Shown here in pieces: positions 3,595 through 58,964 of a stretch of 64,000 bases of DNA. Within the stretch, counting starts at the first letter, position 1; every line of letters begins with the position of its first letter. Origin of the DNA: an uncultured Bacteroidales bacterium (GTDB taxonomy: Bacteria > Bacteroidota > Bacteroidia > Bacteroidales > B18-G4); NCBI GenBank assembly GCA_964531985.1, contig CAZHFC010000007.1, positions 21,194-85,193 of the forward strand, in the 5' to 3' direction. The translations under genes were made by a program, and so were the position numbers. Below the pieces are notes generated by a model. The model had not been told where the DNA came from, did not search any database, and saw only the letters and a program-made list of their open reading frames with translations.

Positions 3595-5658
3595 TTATTC
3601 GGAGGGAGGGTGCTTTTTGGCTTTTAGCAGGTTGATGCCTTCTTCCACCAGCATATTCACAGTATTTTCCTTCATAAAGGATTCGATGGGCCATTCGATG
3701 CCGAATTCTTTATTCACATCCCGCTCGAGGCTTACGGCAGTGATGGAATCGAGCCCATAGGCCGATACGGCTTTGTCGGGGTCGATCTTCCCGGGGTCGA
3801 CCTTTAGTTTTTGCGATATCCAGTGGATCAGCCACTCGCGGAGGTACCCGGGCCGGAATCCTATCTCAGAGGCAAGTTCATCTGTTATGGCCGGCATCTT
3901 CCATGAAGCCACCATTTTAAGTTCATTTTCCTGCCAGGCTCTTTTCACGGCAAAGCGCTGGATCTTGCCACTGGATGTTTTTAAAATGCTGCCGGTACGG
4001 ATGAGCGACAATGCATGGGGCTGGATGCCGTATTCCGAAAAGATGGCCTGCCTGGCGGCTTCAAACACCTCATCGTGCTTGTCCGTATTCATGAAGGCGC
4101 GCTCTGTTTCCATCACCACCACGAGCTTTTCCCCCTCCCCGCTGTCGATGGAAAAGGCTGCGCTGGCATTCTTCCTGATCGCCGGGTGACAGCCCTCGGC
4201 GCAATGTTCTATGTCGTTGGGGAAGTAGTTCGCACCCCTGATGATGATCAGGTCTTTGCGGCGGCCGCTGATAAAGAGTTGACCGTGGCTGATGAAGCCC
4301 AGGTCGCCGGTGCGCAGCCAGGGCCCGTCATGGGTTCCGGCGATACGGGCATTGAAGGTTTCTTCCGTTTCCTGCGGCTTGTTCCAGTAGCCCTGGGCAA
4401 CGGAAGGGCCGCTGACCCATACCTCGCCAAGCATGCCGGCTGCTGAAGGTATTCTGGTAACGGGGTCGACAATGGCCACGCGCATGCCCAGCCAGGGGTA
4501 TCCGCAGGCGGTCAGCACACGGCTTTCCCTGCCTGAAGTGACGGAAAGCACCCTGTTCTCTTCCAGGGCCCTGGCATCGACCTCTGTGTACAGGGGTGCT
4601 GCCAGGTAATTGCCCCCGGTGACGATCAGCACCGATTCGGCCATGCCGTAACAGGGATAGAACTGTGCAGGCCTGAACCCCGAAGGCTTGAATTTTGCCG
4701 CAAACTCCTGCAGGGTTTCACGGCGTATCGGCTCGGCCCCGCAATACAGCGTACGCAACCCGCCAAGGTCAAACTGCGGGATGTCTTCATCCGCCACTTT
4801 TTCGATGCTGTAGTCGAAGGCAAAATTCGGACCGCCTCCGGTAGTGGCCCCGTAACGGCTCATGGACAGAAACCAGTTGGATGGATTTTTCAGGAAGCTG
4901 AGCGGCGGGATGATCACGTTGGAAGCACCCAGGTAGGCAGCCTGTATCAGGCAGCCGATCAGCCCCATGTCATGGAAGTTGGGGAGCCAGTTCACACCAA
5001 CCGAGTTTTCGTCAAAACCGAATGATTGCCTGATGCATTCCGAGTTATGGATGATGTTGGCATGGCTCACCATCACCCCGTTGGGGGTGCCCGTCGAACC
5101 TGAAGTGTATTGCAGCAAGGCAATATCGTTGCCCGATATGCCGGGGTCGGCCCATTTTTCCGCCAGGGATTCATCCATCTCCTCGTAAACCAGCATCTGC
5201 ATCCCTTCCGGGTAGCCTTCCGTTGAATGGTATTCCAGCAGTTCGGCATGGATGCCGGCGGTGCTGATGAGAAAGGCCGGGGATGAATCCTGAACGATCG
5301 ACCTGAAACGTTCGTTGGCCTTGTTCCTTTTTGGGGGATAGGCCGGCACGGCGATCATGCCGGCAAAGTGGCAGGCAAAAAAAGTCGTGATAAACTCAAT
5401 CCCCGTCGGGAATAACAGCAACACCCTGTCGCCCTTATTCCCCTTTTCCATGAGCACACAGGCTATGGCTTTGGCCCTGGCAACGAGGGCGGCATATGTG
5501 ATGCTGTCTTTTTCGTTCAGGCCGTCTTCAAGCAGGATGTAAACCACCTTGCCGGGCTGGTTCTTTTCGTGCTGCAGAAGCCGTTCTGCCATGGTGCCGG
5601 CCGGTAGAACGGTGCCCTCCATCGATGAGCCGAGATATTGCGGATAAGGTTTGTCCAT
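3595..5658 (-). CDS. Fatty acyl-AMP ligase (FAAL) fused to a C-terminal acyl/peptidyl carrier domain
   Basis: Adenylation motifs LQYTSGSTGTPNGV and GDLG. FAAL-type WLPNFHDMGLIG and AVPAYPPKRNK segments. The C-terminal 80 aa carries the phosphopantetheine site YGLDSITAVSL. Confidence 0.85.
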   Translation of the reverse strand: MDKPYPQYLGSSMEGTVLPAGTMAERLLQHEKNQPGKVVYILLEDGLNEKDSITYAALVARAKAIACVLMEKGNKGDRVLLLFPTGIEFITTFFACHFAGMIAVPAYPPKRNKANERFRSIVQDSSPAFLISTAGIHAELLEYHSTEGYPEGMQMLVYEEMDESLAEKWADPGISGNDIALLQYTSGSTGTPNGVMVSHANIIHNSECIRQSFGFDENSVGVNWLPNFHDMGLIGCLIQAAYLGASNVIIPPLSFLKNPSNWFLSMSRYGATTGGGPNFAFDYSIEKVADEDIPQFDLGGLRTLYCGAEPIRRETLQEFAAKFKPSGFRPAQFYPCYGMAESVLIVTGGNYLAAPLYTEVDARALEENRVLSVTSGRESRVLTACGYPWLGMRVAIVDPVTRIPSAAGMLGEVWVSGPSVAQGYWNKPQETEETFNARIAGTHDGPWLRTGDLGFISHGQLFISGRRKDLIIIRGANYFPNDIEHCAEGCHPAIRKNASAAFSIDSGEGEKLVVVMETERAFMNTDKHDEVFEAARQAIFSEYGIQPHALSLIRTGSILKTSSGKIQRFAVKRAWQENELKMVASWKMPAITDELASEIGFRPGYLREWLIHWISQKLKVDPGKIDPDKAVSAYGLDSITAVSLERDVNKEFGIEWPIESFMKENTVNMLVEEGINLLKAKKHPPSE

Positions 5659-7154: not shown

Positions 7155-8529
7155 CCAGCCCGAAAATGTCTTCTATGTTCTTCCCCGGCCTTTCGCCCTC
7201 ATACACCATGTTGTGATATTGCAGGTTGGAACCATACGACCAGATGGCCGCCAGCGGGCTGCGGGTCTGTTTCAGCGTCCGCAAAAACTTTTTCTTCAAT
7301 ATGTGGTCGTTATACAGCGCCTCCCAGTTCTTTCTCATCTCCCTGGCAAAGACTTCCGCCGTCATATTCCTGTGTGCAAACACCATTTCAACAAAGTCGT
7401 ATTTCTGCCAGTCGGAAGGGAAATCACGGTGTGCCACCTTCCCTTCTTTCATCATCCTGTTGTATAGCCCGGTGCCGGGAAGCGGGGTGAGCACGGTGGC
7501 CTGTACGGCGTCGATACTGGCATTGTTGATGTACTCAGTGCGCTGTGCCATGGTTTCGGGCGTGTCGCTCTCAAGACCGTATATGAAGGCACCCAAAACG
7601 CTGATGCCGTATTTGTGGATCTTGTCAAAAACCGCTTCGTAATGGTCAATTCCGATGCGGATGTTAAGCTTTTTATTGGTTTCTTCCAGTTGCTCGATCC
7701 TTTCAGATTCGATGCCAAGCAGTACCATCACGCAGCCGGCCCGGGCAGCCAGGCTCAGCACTTCTTCATTGTTGGCAAAGTTCATGGAAGCCGAACAGAA
7801 CCACTGCTTTTTGATGCCCCTTTCGATCATACCCCGGAACAAGGCAATGGCGCGGCGTTCCGACCGTTTTCCATAGCCAATGAGGTTGTCGTCGACAAAA
7901 TAGATCTTTTCGTGCGGGATGCTTTCAAGCTCGTCAAGGACTTCCTCAACGGGCCTTTCGCGGTATTTGTCGCCGTTAAAGGTGTGTACCGAACAAAAAT
8001 CGCACATCATCGGGCAGCCGCGCGTTGTTTGTATGCTTGCAAACTGGTAGCTTTTATGAAACAGATGACGGGCCGGGTAAACGGCATTTTTAAAAGGAAG
8101 GAGTTTGCCCTTGTAAATGCTTTTCATTTTACCCTGCTCAAAGTCGCTGATCAGCTCCGCCCATACGCTTTCCGCCTCACCCGTAACCACCGTGTCGACA
8201 TATTGCCCGGCTTCCTGCGGCATCATCGACGCATGGATGCCCCCCAGCACCGTGGCAATTCCCTTTTCACGGTATACCGCCGCCAGTTCATAGGCCCTGG
8301 CCACCCCTGATGTGAGGGCGGTGATGCCTACCAGGTCGGCTTCACGGTAAGAGAAACGATCGAAATTCTCATCCAGGATCTCTACTTCCCAGTGCTCCGG
8401 CGTGAGCGCTGCCACAATGCCAAGCCCGATCGGGGGGTAGATCACATGGCTGTGAAGGATGAGACCCTGCCGCTTCGTGCTCAGCGGGTTGATGAGCAAA
8501 AGTTTTTTCCTGTTCCCTTTAGTTGACAT
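7111..8529 (-). CDS. Cobalamin (B12)-binding domain radical SAM protein, paralog 2
   Basis: Same architecture as paralog 1: DLVGITALTS...LGGIHASMMPQEA, TTRGCPMMCDFCSVHTF, TPLPGTGLYNRMMKEGKV. The track start at 8538 is a TTG; the ATG at 8529 (MSTKGNRKKLLLINP) is preferred. Confidence 0.85.
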   Translation of the reverse strand: MSTKGNRKKLLLINPLSTKRQGLILHSHVIYPPIGLGIVAALTPEHWEVEILDENFDRFSYREADLVGITALTSGVARAYELAAVYREKGIATVLGGIHASMMPQEAGQYVDTVVTGEAESVWAELISDFEQGKMKSIYKGKLLPFKNAVYPARHLFHKSYQFASIQTTRGCPMMCDFCSVHTFNGDKYRERPVEEVLDELESIPHEKIYFVDDNLIGYGKRSERRAIALFRGMIERGIKKQWFCSASMNFANNEEVLSLAARAGCVMVLLGIESERIEQLEETNKKLNIRIGIDHYEAVFDKIHKYGISVLGAFIYGLESDTPETMAQRTEYINNASIDAVQATVLTPLPGTGLYNRMMKEGKVAHRDFPSDWQKYDFVEMVFAHRNMTAEVFAREMRKNWEALYNDHILKKKFLRTLKQTRSPLAAIWSYGSNLQYHNMVYEGERPGKNIEDIFGLDENSRDLLLASPFR

Positions 8530-47052: not shown

Positions 47053-48408
47053 CTATACGAATCCCTGTGCCATCATGGCATCGGCCACTTTAACAAACCC
47101 GCCGATGTTGGCTCCTGTAACATAGTCGATGTAGTCGCCTTCTTTGGGGCCGTACTTCACACAGGTAGCATGAATGTCTTTCATGATCTGGTGCAGCCGT
47201 GCATCCACTTCTTCCCTTGTCCAGGAAAGCCTGAGCGAGTTCTGGCTCATTTCCAGTCCGGATGTTGCAACACCGCCTGCATTGGCAGCCTTACCGGGTC
47301 CATAAAGGATTTTGGTATTCTGGTATACTTCGATGGCGCCCGGAGTGGATGGCATGTTGGCACCTTCCGACACCAGGAAGCAACCGTTTGAGATCAGTGT
47401 TTTTGCATCGTCTTCGTCGATCTCGTTCTGTGTAGCACTGGGCAGGGCCACATCGCATTTGATGCCCCAGGGGCGTTTCCCTTCATAGTACTCGCAACCG
47501 TACTTTTCGGCATATTCCTTGATGCGTCCGCGCTTTACGTTCTTGAGCTGCATAACGTAAGCCAGTTTCTCTTCATCAATGCCATTGGGATCATAAATGA
47601 ATCCCGCCGAATCGGAAAGCGTAACCACTTTGGCTCCCAGCATGGTGGCCTTCTGAGTGGCAAACTGGGCCACGTTGCCCGACCCCGATACCGTACAGAT
47701 CTTTCCCTTCATGCTGTCGCCGCGCACATTGAGCATTTCCTCGGCAAAGTATACCTGTCCGTAACCGGTAGCTTCGGGACGGATGAGGCTGCCTCCCCAT
47801 TCAATGCCCTTGCCGGTGAGTACGCCGGTAAATTCATTTTTTAACCTCTTGTATTGCCCGAAAAGATAGCCGATCTCGCGACCGCCCACCCCGATGTCGC
47901 CGGCAGGTACGTCGGTGTTGGGACCAATGTGGCGGAAGAGTTCGGTCATGAAGCTCTGGCAAAACGACATCACCTCGCTGTCGGATTTTCCTTTGGGATC
48001 GAAATCAGATCCCCCCTTGCCACCGCCCATGGGCAGGGTGGTGAGGCTGTTCTTGAAAACCTGTTCGTAAGCAAGGAATTTCAAAATGCCCAGGTTCACC
48101 GTGGGGTGGAAACGCAGGCCGCCCTTGTAAGGGCCGATCGCACTGTTCATCTCAATGCGGTAACCCTTGTTGATCTGTATTTCACCTTTGTCGTCTTTCC
48201 ACGGAACCCTGAAAAGGATTACGCGCTCAGGCTCGGCAAGCCTTTCAAGGATCTTGGCTGCCTTGTATTTGGGGTTTTCCTCAACATAGGGGATAATGGT
48301 CGAAACCACCTCCTCAACAGCCTGGTGAAATTCAACTTCGCCGGGATTCCTGGCAATAATCCTGGCCATGAAATCCTTTAATAAAGAATCATAAGCGGTG
48401 TTTGTCAT
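47053..48408 (-). CDS. gdhA: NADP-specific glutamate dehydrogenase
   Basis: FRVPWKDDKGEIQINKGYRIEMNSAIGPYKGGLRFHP and LPMGGGKGGSDFDPKGKS Glu/Leu/Phe/Val dehydrogenase signatures. 451 aa. Confidence 0.92.
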   Translation of the reverse strand: MTNTAYDSLLKDFMARIIARNPGEVEFHQAVEEVVSTIIPYVEENPKYKAAKILERLAEPERVILFRVPWKDDKGEIQINKGYRIEMNSAIGPYKGGLRFHPTVNLGILKFLAYEQVFKNSLTTLPMGGGKGGSDFDPKGKSDSEVMSFCQSFMTELFRHIGPNTDVPAGDIGVGGREIGYLFGQYKRLKNEFTGVLTGKGIEWGGSLIRPEATGYGQVYFAEEMLNVRGDSMKGKICTVSGSGNVAQFATQKATMLGAKVVTLSDSAGFIYDPNGIDEEKLAYVMQLKNVKRGRIKEYAEKYGCEYYEGKRPWGIKCDVALPSATQNEIDEDDAKTLISNGCFLVSEGANMPSTPGAIEVYQNTKILYGPGKAANAGGVATSGLEMSQNSLRLSWTREEVDARLHQIMKDIHATCVKYGPKEGDYIDYVTGANIGGFVKVADAMMAQGFV

Positions 48409-48442
48409 AATAAATATTTGTTGGTTGGTAAAAAAACGGTTT

Positions 48443-48460
48443 TTGTGAAAACGTTCACAA
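48443..48460. promoter_or_regulatory. CRP/FNR-family-type palindrome TTGTGAA-N4-TTCACAA (contains TGTGA-N6-TCACA)
   Basis: Perfect 7-bp inverted repeat in the gdhA / PPDK_N-gene divergent intergenic region. Its centre is about 43 nt upstream of the gdhA ATG. Confidence 0.4.
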
Positions 48461-48592
48461 TATTAAATAAAAAAAATTAAGTATTGCAAGAATTCGATAT
48501 TATTTTGATTCTAAATTGTTATTGCGGCCCTGATGCCTGTAATAAGCGAAATGATTACCTTTACCATCATTTATCATTAGCCCGTATCAGAT

Positions 48593-51500
48593 ATGGAGGG
48601 AAGCAAGAAATCACCAAAAGACCTGCAAAAACTTGAATTCGAAGTACGTGAGCGGCTGAAGGAACTGGCTGCCATCAACCAGACCACGCAAATTCTTCGC
48701 GAAGGAAAAAGCATCGAGGAAACCCTGCACCGCCTGGTCGATATCCTGCCCCCGGCCTGGCAATACCCCGATTATACGGTTGCCAGGATAAAATTTGGCG
48801 AAATGGAGTTTGCAAGCCATGATTTTATGCCCAGCAGCTGGATGCAGAAGCAAAGTTTTGAGACCATCGATGGTTTGCAGGGCTGCGTGGAAGTATTTTA
48901 CCTGAGGGAATTTCCCGAACTTGACGAGGGGCCCTTCCTGAGAGAGGAACGTCACCTGATCGATAACATCGCCGGCCTGATCGAAGGCTACCTGAACAGT
49001 GTAAAGGGAAAAACACTTTTGCGAAGGGAAAGGCCGCTCATCACAGGGGTGGATGCGGGGGCGGAAAAAGAGAAGGAAGCGGGCCACAGCCGGCAATTGC
49101 TGCAGAAATTCCTGAACAAAAGCAATTACGACCGCGACATATACCACGATCTGATGCCATTCAAGGTTAAGGAGATCCTGCTTGTGGCCAACCTCTATGA
49201 TGCATACAGTATAGAAAAAGAGGGTCGCTTTTCGGAACATGTGCTGGGCGAATATCATCAGTTGAACCTTACCTCCATCCCCCGTATTACGGGAGTTTCA
49301 AACGAAAAGGAAGCCATGGCGCAATTGCACAGCAAGCATTTCGACCTGGTCATCCTGATGATGGGGGCCGATAAAAAATCACCCATCGGGCTGAGCTGCA
49401 TGATCAAGAACGAATTCCCTTATATTCCGGTTTTTCTGCTGCTGAACAACAACAGCGATATGGAATATGTGGCAGGGCACAAGGCTTCGGTAAAGCACAT
49501 CGACAAGGTTTTCGTATGGAATGGGGAATCACAGGTGTTCTTTGCCATGATCAAGCATGTGGAAGACATGATCAACGCCGAGAACGACACGCGTGTTGGC
49601 ATGGTCAGGGTGATATTGCTGGTGGAGGACTCGCCCCAGTATTATTCGCGCTACCTGCCCATGCTCTATAATACCGTTCTTGAACAAACCAAAAGGATCA
49701 TCGACGATGTGAGCACCGACGACCTGTACAAGGTGCTGAAACTTCGTGCCAGGCCCAAGATACTCCTGGCTTCCGACTTTGAGCAGGCTACCGGCATCAT
49801 CGATAAGTACGGCGAATATCTGCTGTGCCTCATCACCGATGTGAAATTTAAAAAAGAAGGCAAGGATGACGAAGAAGCAGGCTTTGAACTGGTAAAGTAT
49901 GCCCGGCAACAGATCAGGGACCTCCCCATCATCATACAGTCATCAGACGAAAATAACGCCTCAAAGGCCTATAAGTACAAATCCACTTTCATCAACAAGA
50001 ATTCTGAAAGCCTCTCTCAGGATTTCAGGAGCTTCATCACGCACTATCTCGGGTTTGGCAATTTCATCTATCGCGACGAAAAGGGGAAGATCATCAGTGT
50101 GGCCCGCTCGCTCAAGGAATTTGAGAAACAGCTCAAGACCATTCCCGATGAATCGCTCATGCACCATGCCCGCAAAGACCATTTTTCGCTATGGCTCATG
50201 GCCAGGGGCGAAATTCAGGCTGCCAAGATCCTGAACCCCTACAAGGTGACCGACTTCGAAAGTCCCGGCAGGGTCAGGGAATATTTGCTCGATATCATTT
50301 CCAAATTCAGGAATGAACAGGAAAAAGGAAAGATCATTCCATTCGAGAAGGCCGCCATTGCCGACGAATCGAATATCGTTTCCCTTTCGGAAGGCAGCCT
50401 GGGAGGCAAGGGGAGGGGCGTTGCGTTTATCAATACGCTCATCTACAATTACGAATTCAGCCAGTATATCCCGAATATCCATGTAAAATCGCCCAAGACA
50501 CTGCTCATCGGCACCGAAGAGTTCGAATATTTTATCAGGCGTAACAACCTGCTCGACCTGGTGCTGAACGAAAAAGACTACCTGAAGATCAGGAAGGCCT
50601 TTCTTCAGGCCACGCTCACGGGCACCCTCATCAAACGGTTGAAAATGGTGCTGGATGAAATAAAAAAGCCCATCGCCATCAGGTCTTCCGGCCTGTTCGA
50701 AGACTCGCTGATCCAGCCCTTTGCCGGAATTTTCGAAACTTACCTGCTTCCCAACAACCATCCCGACCCCAAAGTGCGGCTCGAACAGGCCATGGATGCC
50801 ATCAAGCTGGTATATGCCAGCGTATATTCGTCAACGGCGCGCGGGTATGTGGAAGCCATCAACTATAAGCTTGAAGAGGAAAAGATGGCCGTGGTTATCC
50901 AGGAGGTGGTAGGCAACCAATACGGCCGTTACTTTTACCCGCACATCAGCGGGGTGGCCCAATCATATAATTATTATCCTGTTTCGCATATGAAGCCTGA
51001 AGAAGGCTTCGTGGTGGCCGCCGTGGGTTTGGGAAAATATGTGGTGGAAGGGGAAAAAGCCTACCGTTTTTCGCCCAGATACCCCGAAATTGAGATCAAC
51101 AGCGCCAGGGACCAGTACAGGAACTCGCAGGTCAAATTTTTTGCCGTCGACCTCGAAAAGAAAGAACCCAACCTGCTGGAGGGTGACACGGCCGGCCTTG
51201 CCCGCCTCGACATCGATGATGCAGAAATGCACGGAACGCTCAATCACTGCGCTTCGGTATACAATCCCGATAACGACCAGATCATTCCCGGCCTGACACA
51301 TGCCGGGCCCCGTATCGTTAATTTCGCCAACATCCTTAAGTATAACTATATCCCCCTGGCCCAGACCATCGAAGTGGTCCTCGACGTGGTGAAGGAAGCC
51401 CTTGGCTCGCCTGTGGAAGTTGAGTTTGCCGTTGACCTGAACAAGGACCGCAACGGCATGGCATCCTTCTACCTGCTGCAGATCAAGCCTCTCATCGGCA

Positions 51501-52051
51501 ATGCCTCGGACTATACCATCGACCTGGCGAAGATCAAAAAGGAAAGCATTTTATTGTTTTCGGAAAAAGGCATGGGCAACGGAATCATCGAGAATATCAG
51601 TGATGTGGTTTATGTCGACCCGAAAACCTTTGATAAGGCCGAAACGGAAACCATCGCCGCAGAGATCAACCGGATCAACACAAAAATGGTGTCGGAAAAG
51701 CGCAAATATGTCCTGATCGGACCCGGCCGCTGGGGAACCCGCGACCGCTGGATCGGCATACCCGTGACCTGGCCGCAGATCTCGAACGCCGGTGTCATCA
51801 TCGAAACCAGCCTGGAAGACTATCCGCTTGATGCTTCTTCCGGATCGCACTTCTTCCACAATGTCACATCCATGAATGTCGGCTATTTCTCGGTGCAACC
51901 CGAAATGTCGGAAAGCTACATCCGCTACGACATGCTGGAGGCCGGCAAGCTGGTCGAAAAAACCGCCTTTGTCAGACATGTCAGGTTCAAAAAACCCCTG
52001 AAGGTACGCATGGACGGCAAGAAACGGATCTCGCTCATCACCCTTGAATAG
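48593..52051 (+). CDS. Multidomain regulator-like protein: N-terminal sensor-like domain, two CheY-like (receiver/pseudo-receiver) segments, and a PEP/pyruvate-binding PPDK_N (ATP-grasp) domain
   Basis: VRVILLVEDSP...CLITDVKF...IIIQSSD is receiver-like. SLGGKGRGVAFIN and IAIRSSGLFEDSLIQPFAGIFETY resemble PpsA/PPDK N-terminal nucleotide-binding motifs. I found no TSHAA-type phosphohistidine motif. Confidence 0.65.
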   Translation: MEGSKKSPKDLQKLEFEVRERLKELAAINQTTQILREGKSIEETLHRLVDILPPAWQYPDYTVARIKFGEMEFASHDFMPSSWMQKQSFETIDGLQGCVEVFYLREFPELDEGPFLREERHLIDNIAGLIEGYLNSVKGKTLLRRERPLITGVDAGAEKEKEAGHSRQLLQKFLNKSNYDRDIYHDLMPFKVKEILLVANLYDAYSIEKEGRFSEHVLGEYHQLNLTSIPRITGVSNEKEAMAQLHSKHFDLVILMMGADKKSPIGLSCMIKNEFPYIPVFLLLNNNSDMEYVAGHKASVKHIDKVFVWNGESQVFFAMIKHVEDMINAENDTRVGMVRVILLVEDSPQYYSRYLPMLYNTVLEQTKRIIDDVSTDDLYKVLKLRARPKILLASDFEQATGIIDKYGEYLLCLITDVKFKKEGKDDEEAGFELVKYARQQIRDLPIIIQSSDENNASKAYKYKSTFINKNSESLSQDFRSFITHYLGFGNFIYRDEKGKIISVARSLKEFEKQLKTIPDESLMHHARKDHFSLWLMARGEIQAAKILNPYKVTDFESPGRVREYLLDIISKFRNEQEKGKIIPFEKAAIADESNIVSLSEGSLGGKGRGVAFINTLIYNYEFSQYIPNIHVKSPKTLLIGTEEFEYFIRRNNLLDLVLNEKDYLKIRKAFLQATLTGTLIKRLKMVLDEIKKPIAIRSSGLFEDSLIQPFAGIFETYLLPNNHPDPKVRLEQAMDAIKLVYASVYSSTARGYVEAINYKLEEEKMAVVIQEVVGNQYGRYFYPHISGVAQSYNYYPVSHMKPEEGFVVAAVGLGKYVVEGEKAYRFSPRYPEIEINSARDQYRNSQVKFFAVDLEKKEPNLLEGDTAGLARLDIDDAEMHGTLNHCASVYNPDNDQIIPGLTHAGPRIVNFANILKYNYIPLAQTIEVVLDVVKEALGSPVEVEFAVDLNKDRNGMASFYLLQIKPLIGNASDYTIDLAKIKKESILLFSEKGMGNGIIENISDVVYVDPKTFDKAETETIAAEINRINTKMVSEKRKYVLIGPGRWGTRDRWIGIPVTWPQISNAGVIIETSLEDYPLDASSGSHFFHNVTSMNVGYFSVQPEMSESYIRYDMLEAGKLVEKTAFVRHVRFKKPLKVRMDGKKRISLITLE

Positions 52052-52100
52052 CATATCGGCACAATGAACATTCTGCTTTCCGGACTTGTTAAGTTGCCGG

Positions 52101-52667
52101 ATGAAGCATGCAATGATAATATCTTTTATCAGGCCGCTGGCAGTCGTTGGCCTGCTTTTGCTGTTGTTTTCCTGCCGGGATGGCAGGGAGCCTGCACAAA
52201 AAAATGCCCGGGCTCTACCGCTGAAAGTGGCCGAAGCGGATGGCATCAGCGTGCCGGTTTATGATTTTGCCTCCATCAGCCCCCTTTTCGATGAACAGGG
52301 CGATACACTCTTCATTTTTAATTTCTGGGCTACCTGGTGCAAACCCTGTGTAAAGGAATTGCCTTATTTTGAGCGGGCAGCCAAACATTTTTACGGGGAA
52401 CCCGTGAAGATTACCCTGGTCAGCCTCGACTTTTCGGAGAACATTGAAGAGGTGCTGATCCCTTTCATGCTTGCAAATGGGCTGAAACTGGAAGTGGTCA
52501 ACCTTGACGACCCCGACGCCAATGCCTGGATACCCAAAGTCAGCAGTGAGTGGGATGGTGCCATCCCCGCAACCCTTTTCATGCGAAAGGGTGAAAAGAC
52601 CTTCTTTGCGCATGCCTTCACCTATGAGGAACTGATTGATGAAATTGAAAAACAACTTAAACGATAA
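52101..52667 (+). CDS. TlpA-like thiol:disulfide oxidoreductase lipoprotein (thioredoxin fold)
   Basis: Lipobox MKHAMIISFIRPLAVVGLLLLLFSC. Active site FNFWATWCKPCVKELP (WCxxC). Confidence 0.75.
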   Translation: MKHAMIISFIRPLAVVGLLLLLFSCRDGREPAQKNARALPLKVAEADGISVPVYDFASISPLFDEQGDTLFIFNFWATWCKPCVKELPYFERAAKHFYGEPVKITLVSLDFSENIEEVLIPFMLANGLKLEVVNLDDPDANAWIPKVSSEWDGAIPATLFMRKGEKTFFAHAFTYEELIDEIEKQLKR

Positions 52668-52671
52668 AACA

Positions 52672-53274
52672 ATGAAAAAAACAAGTCTGACCATCATCGC
52701 GCTGCTTATGTCAGTGGCATATGTTATTGCCGGCGGATACCGGCCGGGCGACAAAGCCGCCGGCTTTTCGCTGAAAAACGTGGACGGAACCATGGTTTCC
52801 ATGTCCGATTATGAAGATGTCAAAGGATTTATCCTGATATTTACCTGCAATCACTGCCCCTATTCGGTAAAATATGAAGACCGAATCATCGCCCTCGACA
52901 AAAAATACAAGGAACAGGGTTACCCGGTAATTGCCATTAACCCGAACGATCCGGCCAAACAGCCCGAGGACAGCTTTCCGCTGATGCAGGAGCGGGCACG
53001 CAACAAGGGTTTTACTTTTCCTTACCTCTTTGATGAAAGCCAGGAAACAGCGCGTACATACGGTGCAACACGCACGCCCCATGTATTTCTTCTGCAAAAG
53101 GATGAAGGTGATCTACTGGTAAAATACATCGGTGCCATCGACAACAATGTGAAAAGCGAGCAGCTTGCCGATATAAAATATGTTGAAGATGCCATTGCTG
53201 CCCTGGCTGAGGGCAGGGATCCCGATCCCGCCTTTACGACTGCAGTTGGCTGCACCATCAAGTGGAAGGATTAA
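52672..53274 (+). CDS. Thioredoxin-fold redoxin (AhpC/TSA-like) protein, secreted
   Basis: Signal MKKTSLTIIALLMSVAYVIA. FTCNHCPYS CxxC-type site. ARTYGATRTPHVFLL is typical of this redoxin family. Confidence 0.75.
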   Translation: MKKTSLTIIALLMSVAYVIAGGYRPGDKAAGFSLKNVDGTMVSMSDYEDVKGFILIFTCNHCPYSVKYEDRIIALDKKYKEQGYPVIAINPNDPAKQPEDSFPLMQERARNKGFTFPYLFDESQETARTYGATRTPHVFLLQKDEGDLLVKYIGAIDNNVKSEQLADIKYVEDAIAALAEGRDPDPAFTTAVGCTIKWKD

Positions 53275-53415
53275 ACGGGGAGTGTTCAATCCCGTGTGTC
53301 CGGTGCAGTTAAAGAGGAAAAGAATAACCAGGCTGAACATTTGGATCGCCGGATGCGGAATCCTGCCTGAGAATTTTCCCGCCCCCTTCCGATCTCTCCC
53401 AAAAGGGGAGGCCGA

Positions 53416-53436
53416 TATGATTGCGCGATTGAACGA
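53416..53436 (+). repeat. Left copy of a 21-nt direct repeat TATGATTGCGCGATTGAACGA (octamer-periodic GATTGNNC units)
   Basis: Identical 21-mer at 55081-55101. Looser homology continues for about 25 nt (GAAATTCAAAAATGG versus GATAATCAAAATCTGG). Confidence 0.75.
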
Positions 53437-53871
53437 AATTCAAAAATGGTCATCCCGATGGAGCGAAGCGAGGAGGGATGGTTTAAGGAGCCGGGTGGTG
53501 GCCCCGGGGGAAAGGGGCTGTAAGGCCGCTGGCTGGTCTGTACGCCTTCTTTCAACCAATAAGCACAAAAATCATGAAAGACTTTACAGAACCCTGAACC
53601 TGTTTATCTCCGAAAAATTAAAAAGCCTTCGTTAAGTGCATGGATCGTTATAGGATGGATGCGCAGCACAGAAGCTGTCGGGATGTGGTTCAATAACAAC
53701 TCCTTGCCCGGTTCCAGGAGTTTCATCGGGTTTACAGACCGCCCGGCTTTCCGTTTTTTGCGCATCATTGCTTTATTATCTCCATTATATCAGTCAATTA
53801 ATAATCTAATTGAAAAATATTTCCGTTTTTTTGTAATAAATTCCAATCAAGGAATACTTTATTAGAAACAG

Positions 53872-54387
53872 ATGTCAGGAAATATGAAAGCATTGAAAGA
53901 AGAATTCCTTGAAATACTTGCAAATTATCAAGGAATACTGCACAAAGTCAGCCTGGTTTACTTTAAAAATAAAATTGACCGGGAAGATAATATTCAGGAA
54001 ATCATATATCAGCTCTGGAAGTCGTACCCAACACTTAAAAACCGTAACAGCATTGGTTCATGGATTTATGCAGTATCAATAAATACATCTTTATCAAGGA
54101 TCAAAAAAGAGTTGCGGGTAGAATACAGGGAGGCAATACCCGAATTATCTGATAAATCAGATTTTATTGAGAATCTATCAATGAATGAATCATTAAACCT
54201 GCTTTTGAATGCAATATATCATCTTGATGAGCTTGACAAATCAATCATGCTGCTTTATCTGGAAGAAAAAAGCTATGATGAAATTGCCGGGATTATTGGT
54301 ATATCAAAGTCGAATGTGGGTGTTAGAATCAATCGGGCAAAAGAAACGTTAAAACATACCTTTAAAGTACAAAGCCATGGAAAATAA
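53872..54387 (+). CDS. ECF-subfamily RNA polymerase sigma-70 factor
   Basis: Region 2 EDNIQEIIYQLWKSY...WIYAVSIN. Region 4 SYDEIAGIIGISKSNVGVRINRAKETLK. 171 aa, in an AT-rich context. Confidence 0.85.
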   Translation: MSGNMKALKEEFLEILANYQGILHKVSLVYFKNKIDREDNIQEIIYQLWKSYPTLKNRNSIGSWIYAVSINTSLSRIKKELRVEYREAIPELSDKSDFIENLSMNESLNLLLNAIYHLDELDKSIMLLYLEEKSYDEIAGIIGISKSNVGVRINRAKETLKHTFKVQSHGK

Positions 54388-55006
54388 TGAATTACAATTA
54401 ATATGGAGAACCGTGAACGCCGATATTAAACAAAAATCCAGGGATGAACTAAACCTGTTGTTGACATCAAAGGCCAGGCAGGTATTTGCCGAATTTTTGA
54501 TCTTTAATATTACTGCTATTCCGGTTTGTATAGGGTTAATGGTTTGGCTGATCATTTCTACGGCAAATAGTATAGACGATAAACTATATGTTGCAAACAA
54601 TGTCTTGCTGGGGTCAATCGGGTTATTCACCTTATTTCACGTAATCCGGGGATGGCATCGGTATAAACGGAGCAAAATGGACAAACCAGTCAAAGAGTGG
54701 CTGGGAATAGAAATCGACCTGTTGTCTAAATGGATAATTGGTAAATACAAAAGAATTGACCTTTATCTAATCCCCATATTATTTATCCTTTCTTTTCTAT
54801 CAATTCACGTATACCATTCAGACCTTTATTTAATTGAAGTGTTTCGCTCGGATAAATTCATAAGTGAAGATATGTGGGGGTTAATAATTTTCACACCGAT
54901 AATCTTTGCTGCTTCTTTTTATGGTTTGATAAAACTCCGCAAGTATCAGGTGAAAAAACTGCAATTTCTCAAAGATCTGTATGGTCGCATTTGTCAGGTA
55001 TGCTAA
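54377..55006 (+). CDS. Membrane protein, probable cognate anti-sigma/partner of the ECF sigma
   Basis: Overlaps the sigma gene by 11 nt. Four hydrophobic helices. No recognisable anti-sigma zinc motif, so the role is inferred from position only. Confidence 0.45.
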   Translation: MENNELQLIWRTVNADIKQKSRDELNLLLTSKARQVFAEFLIFNITAIPVCIGLMVWLIISTANSIDDKLYVANNVLLGSIGLFTLFHVIRGWHRYKRSKMDKPVKEWLGIEIDLLSKWIIGKYKRIDLYLIPILFILSFLSIHVYHSDLYLIEVFRSDKFISEDMWGLIIFTPIIFAASFYGLIKLRKYQVKKLQFLKDLYGRICQVC

Positions 55007-55080
55007 GGGTATCACGGCATGGCACGGGCCTGAACAAGCAGAAGCCCGGGCCTGCCCGCTTGCTGCGGCCATCATCCCGG

Positions 55081-55101
55081 TATGATTGCGCGATTGAACG
55101 A
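55081..55101 (+). repeat. Right copy of the 21-nt direct repeat, with one extra GATTGAGC octamer unit
   Basis: TATGATTGCGCGATTGAACGA followed by TTGAGCGAT, giving GATTGCGC-GATTGAAC-GATTGAGC-GAT. Confidence 0.75.
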
Positions 55102-55196
55102 TTGAGCGATAATCAAAATCTGGAGGAAACTTGTTTTGTTTGTGAAGAGAGGTTAGAGGGGGTGAGCCATGGCATATCCCGCTTGTTGGAAAAGCA

Positions 55197-55223
55197 CCGG
55201 CGGATGAAAATGCCGGTTTTTTT
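55197..55223 (+). terminator. Weak candidate rho-independent terminator downstream of the sigma/membrane-protein pair
   Basis: CCGGC (55197-55201) pairs with GCCGG (55212-55216), 10-nt loop, followed by T7 (55217-55223). The stem is short and lies 190 nt from the stop. Confidence 0.35.
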
Positions 55224-55385
55224 CCTTGCCTGGTCTGCTTTTGTTAACTGCACCGATCAGCTATTCAGGCCGGTGTTTGCCTTCAGATGGTTTATCATGC
55301 CCAACTATATAGAGATGCAACTTTTCTGTTGTTGCCTTGAACCGGCTTTTTACCGGTTTATCAGAAGATCCCTCCTGATCCTGTT

Positions 55386-56342
55386 TTATTCCTTCAGTGA
55401 GAGCGTAAAAGAACGGGCATGTGCATGGAGGGGAATCGTGTCCCCGATCGCATATGTGTCAATATAAGCTTTTCCGTTTTTGGCAATTGTCATAACACGG
55501 AACATTGGCGTGTGGTTTGTTTCATCGGGAATTTTGGTGCGTTCCAGGGCGGGAATATGAAGATATTGGACATGGTCAATTTTTTTGGAGTGGTTTACCC
55601 GGTCCATATCCATGTGAAGATCGCCTGAAACAACCACGGCAAGATTGTTTTGTGAAATCACCTTTTCTCTGAACAGTTCGTTACTGATGCCTTTATCAGG
55701 GTTTTCGGGGTATACGCCCTGTTGGGCCCCGTGTACAACCAGCACCACCGGTTTGGGAGCGAGCCGTTGCAGTTGTTCAAGAATCCACCTGGCACCGCTG
55801 TCGTCGAAATCCCGGCTATAATCAGGCGAAGCACATATAAAGGCGATCTGGTCATATTCCAGTACATACTTTGTGCTTTCAATCTGGCTGTTCCATTGTC
55901 GGGCATAGTACAGATACCGTTCTACTGTACTGCCATGCTCCTCGTTGCCCATTATTGGATAAAACGGTAACGAAAGTTTTTGTAAAACCCGGGTTGCAGC
56001 TTCGTACTGGATTTCAGTTCCTTTATGCGCTATGTCGCCAACACCGATAACAAGATCGATATGCTTTGACCGGGCAAGGGCGTTGATCTGTTCAACAGCC
56101 GCATCCATATGAGGGAATTCAGCCAATGGCTTGGGTTCAGCATCGCCCAGAAAGGCTACGCGAAGAAGCGTGGTATCATTTTCGGCATGCACTCCGGTAA
56201 GGTTAAACACGGATGCCTCCGGATGATTTGCTTCTGATTTTGTGCCGGTATTGCCGGCGGACCCGCTTTTACCGGGGTTTCCCTGACATCCTGCCAATAC
56301 GATGGCGAGAAGAATAAATGAAAGTTTCAAAAATCGTGTCAT
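55386..56342 (-). CDS. Calcineurin-like metallophosphoesterase lipoprotein
   Basis: Lipobox MTRFLKLSFILLAIVLAGCQG. Metallophosphoesterase motifs FLGDAEP, GVGDIAHKG, MGNEEH, VVHG, GDLH. Confidence 0.8.
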   Translation of the reverse strand: MTRFLKLSFILLAIVLAGCQGNPGKSGSAGNTGTKSEANHPEASVFNLTGVHAENDTTLLRVAFLGDAEPKPLAEFPHMDAAVEQINALARSKHIDLVIGVGDIAHKGTEIQYEAATRVLQKLSLPFYPIMGNEEHGSTVERYLYYARQWNSQIESTKYVLEYDQIAFICASPDYSRDFDDSGARWILEQLQRLAPKPVVLVVHGAQQGVYPENPDKGISNELFREKVISQNNLAVVVSGDLHMDMDRVNHSKKIDHVQYLHIPALERTKIPDETNHTPMFRVMTIAKNGKAYIDTYAIGDTIPLHAHARSFTLSLKE

Positions 56343-56348
56343 AGTTTT

Positions 56349-56993
56349 TTATCTGGTATTATGGTCAATATAATTGCGGTGCGCTTTTTTCAAATAACGA
56401 AGCGCCTCTGTTTCATCGTTTACTGATAGGATATTAATTTTACCGGGCCCTTTGTAGTTTGAGAGCCAAATCCTGATAATTTCAATAATGCCGGGATACT
56501 TATTCTTTAACATTTCATATGAGTTTATATCAAGCCCCGCTTCATCAGTATTCACAGCCAAAAGCTTGGGGTCTGATTCCTCGTTATCGAGCAGATGGAT
56601 TATTCCGACAATCCTGGCGGTAATAATTCTTTCACGGGCAATGGCTGAACCCAGGACAAGAACATCCACCGGATCGCCGTCGCCACCGGTGGTTTCTGGT
56701 AACAATGTCTGTGGCACAAAACCATAATTGGCCGGATACGCCAGATAATCAATTACGCGGAACGACCCTGGGGTAAGCTGCTCCCATTCCAGGCGGCCAC
56801 TTTCTTTGTTCAGTTCCCATTTTTCGCTCGTACCTGCAGGGATTTCAATAACGACATTCACCAGTGAGTCAGATGCGAATGCAGCAATGTCGCGCAGGTA
56901 GTCAGTTGTTTTAACAGCTGTATTTTCAACCCTGTCATGATTGCTGCAGGCAAAGAGTATGACGAGTGCAAATCCTGTTAATAGTGTTTTCAT
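56349..56993 (-). CDS. ppa: Family I inorganic pyrophosphatase with a lipoprotein signal peptide
   Basis: VVIEIPAGTSEKWELNKESG and GGDGDPVDVLVLG (DxDPxD) PPase signatures. The ATG at 56993 gives MKTLLTGFALVILFACSNHD (lipobox). The longer track ORF adds an Arg/Pro-rich non-protein-like extension. Confidence 0.8.
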   Translation of the reverse strand: MKTLLTGFALVILFACSNHDRVENTAVKTTDYLRDIAAFASDSLVNVVIEIPAGTSEKWELNKESGRLEWEQLTPGSFRVIDYLAYPANYGFVPQTLLPETTGGDGDPVDVLVLGSAIARERIITARIVGIIHLLDNEESDPKLLAVNTDEAGLDINSYEMLKNKYPGIIEIIRIWLSNYKGPGKINILSVNDETEALRYLKKAHRNYIDHNTR

Positions 56994-57153
56994 TTTATGT
57001 GATATGAAGGGATGGTGTTGTACGTGATTACGAGGCGATTTCCTGTCAGTTTGGCTGCCGGCAGATTTGTTGACCCTCCGGTTACCGGCGAACAGACCGG
57101 GGGGGCGGCAAAGATAAACCCGCATGCATTTAAGCTTGTTTTATGTGGCGTTT

Positions 57154-58218
57154 TTACTTTTCATATTCATTTAATTTTTCCATCAGATTATATTTAGCCT
57201 GTCTCGTTTTCCACCTTTCCCGTGCAAATTTCTGCATATCTGTTATTGTATCTTTTTCGTCAACGATTTCAAGTCCCAGCAGCGTTTCAATGATATCCTC
57301 CATTGTTACGATCCCGTCTACTCCTCCGTATTCGTCAACGATCAGTGCTATATGCTCCTTTTTTTCCAGCAGCTTTTCCCATAAAGAGAACAATACCATC
57401 GTTTCGGGAACAACGATGATCTCGCGTTTTATTTCCTTTAGTTTCAGTTTTTGGTTGTTTTCAGCTAATTTTTCAAATACCTGCTGCCTGAAGACGTATC
57501 CGGTAATGTTTTCATTGTTCCCCGAGTATACAGGTATTCTTGAAAATTTCAGGTATTCCTTGTTTTTCAGAAAGTCTTCCAGGGGCAGATTCTCATCAGC
57601 AACTGCAACAACAACTCTTGGCGTCATTATCTCGGTTACTTTAACATTTTTCAGTCGTAGTATATTTTGAATTATTTTGTTTTCCTTCTCCGAGAACAAA
57701 CCTTCATCCGACCCGATGCTTGCCAAAGCTGCAATCTCTTCTCTGCTGGTAGTTTGTTCGTTTGTTCGTTTCGAAAAAACCCGTGTAATCACAGACGACA
57801 TCACAACCAAAGGATAGGTGAAAAAGATCATAAATTTGATTGTAAAAAACGAGGTCCTTGTTAAGCTTTTCCAATATCTGGCCCCAATCGTTTTCGGAAT
57901 TATTTCAGTAAATACTAAAATCAGAATTGTAAGTATGGCAGAGACTATCCCGAAATATACTTCGCCAAACACCTTTACAGCCTGGGCTCCAACACCGGCA
58001 GCTCCAATCGTATGAGCAACGGTGTTTAAAGATAATATTGCAGATAAAGGTTTATCTATATTGATTTTTAAATTTAAAAATGACTCTGCCCATTTATGCC
58101 CCTTGTTTTGCTTTACAATCAGAAATGACTGAGGGGTGGAAAGAAGCACGGATTCCATTATTGAACAAAGAAATGAAACGAATAGGGCAAGGAATAAATA
58201 TGCAATCAGGGTTACCAT
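57154..58218 (-). CDS. CNNM/DUF21 transmembrane domain plus CBS-pair protein (CorB/hemolysin-family divalent-cation transport protein)
   Basis: N-terminal DUF21-type helices (MVTLIAYLFLALFVSFLCSIMESVLLS). CBS-pair region (VTEIMTPRVVVAV...IALIVDEYGGVDGIVTMEDIIE). No CorC_HlyC C-terminal domain is evident. Confidence 0.8.
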   Translation of the reverse strand: MVTLIAYLFLALFVSFLCSIMESVLLSTPQSFLIVKQNKGHKWAESFLNLKINIDKPLSAILSLNTVAHTIGAAGVGAQAVKVFGEVYFGIVSAILTILILVFTEIIPKTIGARYWKSLTRTSFFTIKFMIFFTYPLVVMSSVITRVFSKRTNEQTTSREEIAALASIGSDEGLFSEKENKIIQNILRLKNVKVTEIMTPRVVVAVADENLPLEDFLKNKEYLKFSRIPVYSGNNENITGYVFRQQVFEKLAENNQKLKLKEIKREIIVVPETMVLFSLWEKLLEKKEHIALIVDEYGGVDGIVTMEDIIETLLGLEIVDEKDTITDMQKFARERWKTRQAKYNLMEKLNEYEK

Positions 58219-58964
58219 TTTTCTTTCAAATATACAATTTTGTTTATTGTTTTGTTTATTTCGTGCAGTTTTTGGGGTAGTGTTACATTCGGTTTGTTTG
58301 CGGGGAGTCTTGCCCGTTGAGCGAAGCGAAGAAGAAACCTGCTGTATTCGTGGCCTGTAAGTTTACCCCGGGAAGAGCCGAAGGGCAGAGTGGTTTACCT
58401 TCATTCCATTCCGGTGGATAAATGTGAGAGGCGCACTCCGGGCGGTTTTTACTGACGAAGCCGCTTACCCGATCATAAGGGCGTAGGCCCGGGTGCTGCG
58501 GTCCAGGTATTGGCGCAGAATTTGACATCGGCTCAAAATGGGCAAAATGCCGTGTCAGCCCACGCACAAATGCCAATAAACAACCCCCGGTCATCCCGAC
58601 CCCGGGTAACCGGGGGAGGGAGCCCCCGGTCGTTCGGATTTAAACCATCAGATTCCACCCGCCGGCCTTCCTTCGGTTCGGATTCATTGCCGGCTTATGC
58701 TGATCCCCTATTCTGTTAATACCAAAAGGCGTGAAAAGCCGCCCCCGCCATGATGTTTTTCCGGTCCTTTCAGTTTGCCCGGCACGGCGGAAACATAAAC
58801 CCCTGTTCAGGTTACTTCTGTTGCATTCACCATCAAACATCCCCTGTATCTGGTAATCCGGCCATGGCTCCCACCTGCACCGATGCTGTGTTTCCGGCGC
58901 CGGAGGCGATAATTTAGACCTCATATAAATTATGGCCATCGCAAAGGGGGCACAAATCATTTGC

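Follow-up and report, generated by a model that had tools for sequence, protein, structure and literature searches.

A small strain-specific islet with a sigma factor cassette between direct repeats in a Bacteroidales genome

In a 64-kb stretch of the genome of an uncultured Bacteroidales bacterium (contig CAZHFC010000007.1, positions 21,194 to 85,193; hereafter the window, with positions counted from its first letter), a gene for an extracytoplasmic function (ECF) sigma factor and the gene that follows it stand between two short direct repeats. Was this pair of genes inserted here, and do the repeats belong to the genes or to the site? The original prediction, made from the letters of the window, offered an inserted or recombined cassette or, alternatively, a phase-variable or excisable module. 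We found relatives in which the same site is empty, and we consider it probable that the locus is an insertion/deletion polymorphism, in which a cassette-bearing segment integrated at a native octamer array and duplicated a target of ~40 nt. The object is a small, recombinase-less, strain-specific islet with an ECF sigma/partner cassette, a fairly ordinary insertion, and it does not overturn current understanding. With the filled and empty alleles both available, it offers a base-resolved example of a Bacteroidota genome gaining or losing a single regulatory module.

Direct repeats and the empty site

The 21-mer TATGATTGCGCGATTGAACGA occurs at 53416-53436 and 55081-55101, exactly where the original prediction had placed it, and these are its sole two copies in the window when up to three mismatches are allowed on both strands; 0 of 100 dinucleotide-preserving shuffles gave a match to it. 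No other exact copy was found in 185,579 GTDB representative genomes or in IMG/VR, so within the sequence searched the 21-mer is not a dispersed one, and with two copies only in 64 kb and no significant fold it does not behave as a REP- or BIME-like repeat. Identity reaches 4 nt further upstream, giving a 25-mer, CCG[A/G]TATGATTGCGCGATTGAACGA, with one mismatch. The repeats are built of GATTGNNC octamers, two units on the left and three on the right, the extra right-hand unit being GATTGAGC; both the periodicity and the extra unit had been recognised correctly. Looser homology had been said to continue for about 25 nt beyond the core. Such homology exists, but it is shorter (~15 nt) and is seen only with the extra unit gapped out, when GAAATTCAAAAATGG on the left equals GATAATCAAAATCTGG on the right at 12 of 16 positions. 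The duplicated segments have the following extents, with unrelated sequence beyond them:

53412..53451 (40 nt), + strand: left target copy, attL-like, consisting of CCGATAT, two octamers (GATTGCGC GATTGAAC) and GAAATTCAAAAATGG; identical core at 53416-53436
55077..55124 (48 nt), + strand: right target copy, attR-like, consisting of CCGGTAT, three octamers (GATTGCGC GATTGAAC GATTGAGC) and GATAATCAAAATCTGG; identical core at 55081-55101

A MAFFT alignment of the two repeat neighbourhoods, offset by one octamer, revealed no extended homology. The copies do not differ at all within the 21-nt core, and they differ by five substitutions and an 8-nt indel in the ~20 nt around it, a clustering outside the core that has p ~0.04 under a uniform spread.

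A protein search with the metallophosphoesterase encoded to the right of the repeats led to a 97%-identical relative on four contigs (L002-L005), and variants from the same 90% protein cluster as this look-up led to L220, L221 and L222-L229. Homologues of this metallophosphoesterase carry names that point to Prolixibacteraceae-like Bacteroidales as the group of the organism. In all of these the gene order is kept, with a PPDK protein, a thioredoxin and AhpC on one side of the site and the metallophosphoesterase, an inorganic pyrophosphatase and a CNNM protein on the other, and the flanks show 90-97% nucleotide identity. The spacer between the AhpC and metallophosphoesterase genes, however, is 443 nt in the empty-site relatives and 2111 nt in the window. 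Within the empty spacer of the L002-L005 relative lies one array, GTGT GATTGAGC GATTGAGC GATTGAAC GATATTCAAAATCTGG, and every empty haplotype has a single three-unit octamer array. By blastn, the window aligned with L002 over 47718-53436 (90.5%) and 55077-58441 (93.9%), and the two blocks overlapped on the same 25 nt of L002; against L220, they overlapped on the same 42 nt. Left-flank homology ends at 53436 against L002 and reaches 53445 against L220, while right-flank homology begins at 55077 against both. Since both flanks align onto the same bases of the empty site, this comparison of sequences identifies the repeats as a duplication of the native target around a segment of 1.63-1.64 kb, that is, as junction scars of attL/attR type. 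The att-like repeats at both ends, taken with the single copy in empty relatives, thus delimit a bounded element.

Three empty haplotypes were present in more than 20 independent assemblies, with L222-L229 being of the L002 type and L220 and L221 distinct. For the L002-type empties, 20 contigs carry the two look-up proteins (16 of them that of L222-L229), and 12 places were read. The cluster variants P0245, P0248 and P0249 were all empty and closer to one another than to the window. The original prediction had proposed a search for sites with one repeat copy and no module, which relatives indeed provided, and its inserted or recombined cassette is supported by these empty sites; of the two findings that it had set against itself, a commonly dispersed 21-mer and relatives carrying the module at this site without repeats, we found neither in the sequence searched.

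The filled allele was also recovered repeatedly. All 17 contigs with an identical AhpC protein were filled, and the three filled places that were read, from three Joint Genome Institute (JGI) and European Nucleotide Archive (ENA) samples, were base-identical to the window over 8.6 kb, arrays included. On this evidence the filled allele is not an assembly artefact.

The insert and its sigma factor cassette

The insert is composite, with two orphan ends around an AT-rich, self-contained cassette:

53452..53759, no strand assigned: orphan left segment, absent from empty-site relatives; host-like GC of 0.495 over 53437-53759 (323 nt)
53760..53883, + strand: conserved upstream block; its promoter-like box has TTTG at 53830-53833 and, after 21 nt, TACTTTAT at 53855-53862
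53884..54387, + strand: ECF-type sigma factor gene, 167 aa from a conserved ATGAAA start, in a frame open from 53872 (171 aa); GC 0.335
54377..55006, + strand: partner gene, for a membrane protein of 209 aa that is all helical; translationally coupled to the sigma gene, whose stop and the partner start overlap by 11 nt
55007..55076, + strand: orphan right segment, with GC of 0.69 over 55007-55080 (74 nt) and a G+C-rich hairpin at ~55016-55056, directly after the partner stop

The original prediction described a low-GC module between the repeats. The low-GC block is real, but it fills only 53760-55006 and not the whole of that space; its GC is 0.342 (0.28-0.39 locally) against ~0.50 for the window. 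The hand counts of G+C on which that description drew (30, 27, 47 and 54) were all exact, and the codon-composition check that it proposed gave G+C at third codon positions (GC3) of 0.32 for the sigma gene and 0.40 for the partner, both well below the 0.62 ± 0.07 of 39 host open reading frames (ORFs) by ~3-4 standard deviations (SD).

In the orphan left segment we detected no gene, RNA family or homologue among the window, the fetched loci, plasmids and phages, and a 54-aa ORF at 53604-53768 on the - strand had itself as its sole match among 5.8 billion proteins. When compared with shuffles, the right-segment hairpin did not reach significance (z = -0.38), nor did folding the orphan segments and junctions as DNA or RNA give anything better than shuffled sequence, and an Rfam scan of 52900-55700 at E <= 1 returned one sub-threshold chance match only. 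The insert ends have no second copy in the window or in any fetched locus. Searched as a whole, the insert had no match among plasmids, and among phages only ~60 nt of the conserved sigma region 4 was matched. The orphan end DNA presumably derives from the previous location of the cassette.

The cassette itself recurs in five unrelated Bacteroidota neighbourhoods at 76-85% nucleotide identity. Homology spans exactly 53760-54993, from the conserved upstream box to the stop codon of the partner, and the neighbours differ from place to place (Reg_prop and ArsP; NmrA; peptidase S9 and NYN; alpha/beta hydrolase), with the partner directly 3' of the sigma gene in 5/5 of the other neighbourhoods examined. 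The box follows the pattern TTTTGTAA-AAA, ~14 nt, TACTTTAT-AG-AA, which is invariant in 5 genomes. Its layout resembles the Bacteroidetes -33 TTTG / -7 TAnnTTTG promoter, and we take it to be a putative promoter of this kind. When the conserved box motif was used for a regulon search, it matched nowhere in the window but in the cassette itself. In this case, pairs of an ECF sigma factor and its partner, of which Bacteroidota have a great many, appear as compact cassettes that move with their own promoter-like box.

The sigma factor has regions 2 and 4 only, scoring 30.4 with Pfam Sigma70_r2 (cut-off 24) and 45.6 with Sigma70_r4_2 (cut-off 25.7), and it reached 73.8 bits with the sigma70-ECF model TIGR02937 (cut-off 42.9). 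No named ECF subfamily was reached among the models scored, the nearest values being 71.8 for NF058625 (the GFO_1088/PG0214 family; cut-off 130) and 63.1 for TIGR02985 (cut-off 126.4).

The partner has four hydrophobic segments that are predicted to be transmembrane (TM), and its AlphaFold model is all-helical (pLDDT 79.8). About 35 residues at its N-terminus are strongly conserved (MENNELQKIW...ELNLLLTSKA), and the C-terminal tail is conserved too. It has 178 homologues, all in Bacteroidota metagenomes or metagenome-assembled genomes (MAGs). Those examined as a family (P0121-P0240) are ~205-213 aa long, have four TM segments and are unannotated; they share an invariant N-terminal M-E-x3-LQ-x2-W ... 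ELNLLL-x2-K and a conserved C-terminal L-x-FLKDL-x2-R. No Pfam or NCBIfam model matched the partner, anti-sigma domains (ASDI/ZAS, RskA, FecR and similar) included, and a fold search of the PDB with its model gave nothing below E = 1.

By position, the partner looks like an anti-sigma factor, in that it adjoins the sigma gene with an overlapping start, has TM helices and keeps the pairing in five other contexts. The typical place of an anti-sigma gene is +1, and anti-sigma factors with four TM helices are known from three ECF groups (PMC7826278). Because of its +1 position, its four TM segments and this precedent, the sigma factor and its partner probably form a putative sigma/anti-sigma or sensor unit. 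The two resemble Bacteroidota pairs of ECF and membrane anti-sigma factors (PMC7826278) in combining a two-domain sigma factor with an overlapping +1 partner that has TM helices, and in always travelling together. They differ from such pairs in that the partner has no known anti-sigma domain or PDB fold, and from most ECF anti-sigma factors in that it has four TM helices, which is rare, and only ~35 cytoplasmic N-terminal residues. The family is a notable one of conserved, uncharacterised four-TM sigma partners that follow the sigma gene in all contexts examined, and its sequences make it a candidate new class of anti-sigma factor. Since Bacteroidetes carry ~22 ECFs per genome (PMC7826278), the gain of one more is normal; the insert would add one ECF regulator controlled by a membrane signal to the strain.

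Gain, loss and the route of integration

Whichever way the polymorphism arose, the repeats are tied to the event that placed the segment. We hold a gain on the window branch to be distinctly likely, because the silent-site composition of the cassette is foreign and because three array states are common to both window copies. These copies share TAT, GCGC and a GAAC second unit, where the empties instead have TGT, GAGC or GAAC, and GAGC, respectively.

Several observations speak against an insertion of this kind. Neither the insert nor the 10 kb to its left and right contain a recombinase or transposase gene, no tRNA or transfer-messenger RNA (tmRNA) was found in the whole window, and no terminal inverted repeats scored above shuffles; the chemistry of integration thus has no gene to support it. 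The AT-rich block stops 323 nt short of the repeat on the left and ~75 nt short on the right, leaving orphan ends with no identified source, and the anti-sigma role of the partner is without domain or fold support. Where the cassette occurs in the five other contexts, direct repeats of at least 11 nt do not flank it; the repeats therefore belong to this site and not to the cassette. In those contexts the GC of the cassette (0.30-0.37) is also lower than that of every host (0.38-0.53), by 0.06-0.16, so that low GC alone is no proof of a recent arrival. The CNNM/CBS gene of the right flank (57154-58218, - strand) makes the same point within the window, for its GC is 0.38 and its GC3 0.40, yet it is conserved and syntenic in relatives; in this genome, then, a low GC does not in itself mark a gene as recently inserted. 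Finally, the empties form one clade, so that one gain or one precise loss fits the unrooted tree equally, and a metagenome scan for outgroups with the metallophosphoesterase, in a collection that lacks the source contig, returned 80 loci, none of at least 80% identity and none keeping the AhpC junction.

These last two points leave room for the reverse polarity, in which the segment with its flanking repeats dates back to the common ancestor and was precisely deleted in the empty-site lineage, through recombination or slippage involving the 25-48 nt repeats. Across the CNNM, pyrophosphatase and metallophosphoesterase genes, the empties are 98.5-99.9% identical to one another and 95.8-96.8% identical to the window, and a single deletion would be enough to account for all of them. 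Direct repeats of 25-48 nt are long enough for deletion to occur between them. The host-like GC of the orphan ends also favours a loss, as does the extent to which the copies differ outside the core (3 substitutions in 16 nt and the 8-nt indel), which is much like the difference between the lineages (4-10% in the flanks). A loss, however, still requires a prior event that duplicated the target around the segment and so only moves the problem. In addition, the three states common to the window copies are explained more simply by a later duplication than by parallel change or gene conversion, and the GC3 of both genes lies ~3-4 SD under the host mean. We therefore consider a loss in the relatives rather unlikely.

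Judging from the junction pattern, the most likely history of such a gain is a single crossover of a circular intermediate. The cassette would already have been resident in a donor genome of ~50% GC, from which the segment would have been integrated as one piece, by a single crossover of the circle at a short shared sequence. The intermediate would carry its own copy of the ~40-nt target, and the crossover would have been made either by a recombinase acting in trans, as for cis-mobilizable elements (CIMEs), or by recombination between short homologies, over the 40-48 nt target. As it encodes no mobility function, the insert would now be a fixed and immobile islet. An identical core between diverged arms fits an attL/attR or single-crossover pattern better than a fresh staggered-cut duplication. 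The predicted empty junction of the filled strain is ...GGGGAGGCCGATATGATTGCGCGATTGAACGATTGAGCGATAATCAAAATCTGG..., and the predicted circle junction is ...GGCCATCATCCCGGTATGATTGCGCGATTGAACGAAATTCAAAAATGGTCATCCCGATGG....

A second pair of short direct repeats lies at the inner edges of the insert:

53450..53459, + strand: TCATCCCGAT, the left member of the pair
55072..55081, + strand: TCATCCCGGT, the right member, which shares its last positions with the beginning of the right target copy

TCATCCCGRT has just these two matches in the window on either strand, and the significance of their placement is modest (~0.02). Circularisation of the insert would put the two copies 43 nt apart, flanking the 21-nt core.

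Among described systems, CIMEs are integrated elements in which attL and attR persist although the genes for integration and transfer are gone (PMC5704250). Like CIMEs and small islets, the insert is strain-specific, is of atypical composition and has at its borders direct repeats whose counterpart in the empty site is a single copy; like CIMEs, it is without a recombinase of its own and has an identical core between less similar arms. Unlike them, it is only 1.6 kb long, targets an intergenic octamer array rather than the 3' end of a gene for a tRNA or a protein, and is without a known cognate integrative and conjugative element (ICE), integrative and mobilizable element (IME) or integrase. 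It also differs in that it bears no sign of decay from a larger element, in that its AT-rich cargo stops short of the repeats, and in that no excision was detected in assemblies. The integrase or cognate element that marks a CIME or an island was found neither in the insert and 10 kb around it nor by searches with the 21-mer in the window, GTDB representatives and IMG/VR.

A repeat-insert-repeat arrangement is also what a single crossover would yield in Campbell-type integration or in homology-facilitated illegitimate recombination of transformed DNA. A similarity of 40-48 nt is about the minimum length for RecA-dependent exchange. Here, unlike in Campbell-type integration, no circular or donor form was observed and the source of the incoming target copy is unexplained.

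The insert further resembles integron cassettes, being a one- or two-gene unit that occupies a particular short site and brings no recombinase with it. In contrast to them it has its own promoter-like box, no intI within 10 kb, and long direct repeats rather than 7-bp core sites, and no imperfect palindrome of attC type was recognised at its 3' end (no attC covariance model was run). An integron cassette was accordingly rejected, on the absence of a recombinase within 10 kb, the presence of its own promoter-like box and the non-significant 3' hairpin. Two other candidates were rejected as well: an insertion sequence or miniature inverted-repeat transposable element, for want of terminal inverted repeats and because the duplication is 25-48 nt where 2-14 bp would be expected and the insert ends are single-copy in the window and fetched loci; and a tRNA-targeted island, as no tRNA or tmRNA is present in the window.

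Octamer arrays elsewhere and the surroundings of the site

A different view of the repeats is that octamer arrays form a dispersed family of recombination sites, with cassettes shuffled between arrays that act as attI-like or portable-homology sites. GATTGNNC arrays of three or more units gave at least 120 matches in representative genomes of many phyla, whereas chance alone would give a pattern of 20 bases about one match. Among the matches listed (L097-L216) the commonest units were GATTGGGC and GATTGAGC, and Bacteroidota intergenic arrays with the same units as the window occur in L137 (GATTGAGC/GATTGAAC x6, after GGGGAGG), L185, L190 and L194. Examples from the pattern scan are:

L137:2726-2773: array
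L185:4886-4909: array
L190:125-148: array
L194, - strand: array
L186, - strand: array

The positions GATTG--C are conserved while the NN positions vary between haplotypes, and this invariance suggests that the micro-arrays have a function. Most of the matches listed, however, are perfect 8-nt tandem repeats in intergenic DNA, any of which scores if it fits the pattern, and with no control octamer scanned a specific enrichment is unproven. Furthermore, the window holds no additional array of this kind, the other five cassette contexts have no adjoining arrays or repeats, and no associated recombinase was seen. We regard a dispersed family of sites as improbable. A more specific proposal, that GATTGNNC arrays serve for recognition or crossover in a so far undescribed system that acts in trans, captures promoter-bearing, recombinase-less cassettes and duplicates the whole ~40-nt target, seems to us quite improbable; a duplication of ~40 nt is more reminiscent of staggered integration of Cas1/casposase type than of classical transposition.

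In Gemmatimonadota and some other MAGs, L186 among them, the arrays occur as inverted pairs 60-530 nt apart:

L104:7558-7589 (+) and 7648-7671 (-): inverted array pair
L176:3464-3495 (+) and 3609-3640 (-): inverted array pair
L171:4041-4088 (+) and 4621-4644 (-): inverted array pair

These pairs look like the termini of a small element or like one very long hairpin, and we know of no described family that matches them.

The repeats might instead be independent cis-regulatory operator arrays that bracket the operon, which could coexist with an insertion. The conserved GATTG--C with variable NN across haplotypes suggests constraint. Against this, it is exactly at the repeats that similarity to the empty site stops, with the left and right flanks both covering the same bases of the target; the array is present in relatives without the operon and the operon elsewhere without arrays; and 470 nt separate the left copy from the sigma start downstream of it, which puts it outside the conserved promoter block. 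We think operator arrays very unlikely as the explanation of the repeats. The phase-variable or actively excisable module of the original prediction, switching within a population between filled and empty states or in octamer number, is scarcely credible: direct repeats could support excision and the array length does differ between the copies (2 and 3 units), but the 17/17 strain assemblies are filled, with the three that were read identical and no variation among them, the flanks of every empty-site lineage are 3-10% diverged, neither a recombinase nor inverted repeats were found, and the arrays lie outside the genes and the promoter-like box.

The insertion sits between convergent host genes, in the order PPDK_N-domain protein, thioredoxin-like, AhpC/TSA-like, insert, metallophosphoesterase, inorganic pyrophosphatase and CNNM/CBS protein:

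52636..53274, + strand: AhpC/TSA-type thiol peroxidase-like gene, the left host flank (Pfam AhpC-TSA, E = 7e-19), syntenic in relatives
55386..56342, - strand: metallophosphoesterase gene, the right host flank (Pfam Metallophos), convergent with the AhpC-like gene and 97% identical in empty-site relatives
55196..55227, + strand: native terminator-like hairpin (55196-55217) with a T-run, 3' of the insert and kept in empty-site relatives

Terminator-like sites in 53200-55500 number two only, this native hairpin and one inside the partner gene. As no terminator is predicted between the AhpC-like and sigma genes, read-through from the thioredoxin and peroxidase genes may add to expression of the sigma gene.

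The left flank varies among relatives in its own right. The AhpC protein is 97-100% identical to that of the window in L220 and L221 and just 89% identical in L002. L221 (4081-4871, - strand) carries ~100-155 nt of duplicated or inserted sequence within the 3' end of its AhpC-like gene, at the equivalent of window positions 53176-53230, and the gene is uncalled. The uneven AhpC identities and this change in L221 indicate putative mosaic recombination around the locus.

A second strain-variable junction lies 3 kb from the first, where synteny with relatives stops at ~58441, upstream of the CNNM gene. Beyond it, the relatives (L002:1-2800, L003:1-2030 and L222-L229) have a ParD/ParE toxin-antitoxin pair and small ORFs, and the window has NuoE/NuoF-like genes from 58996 onward.

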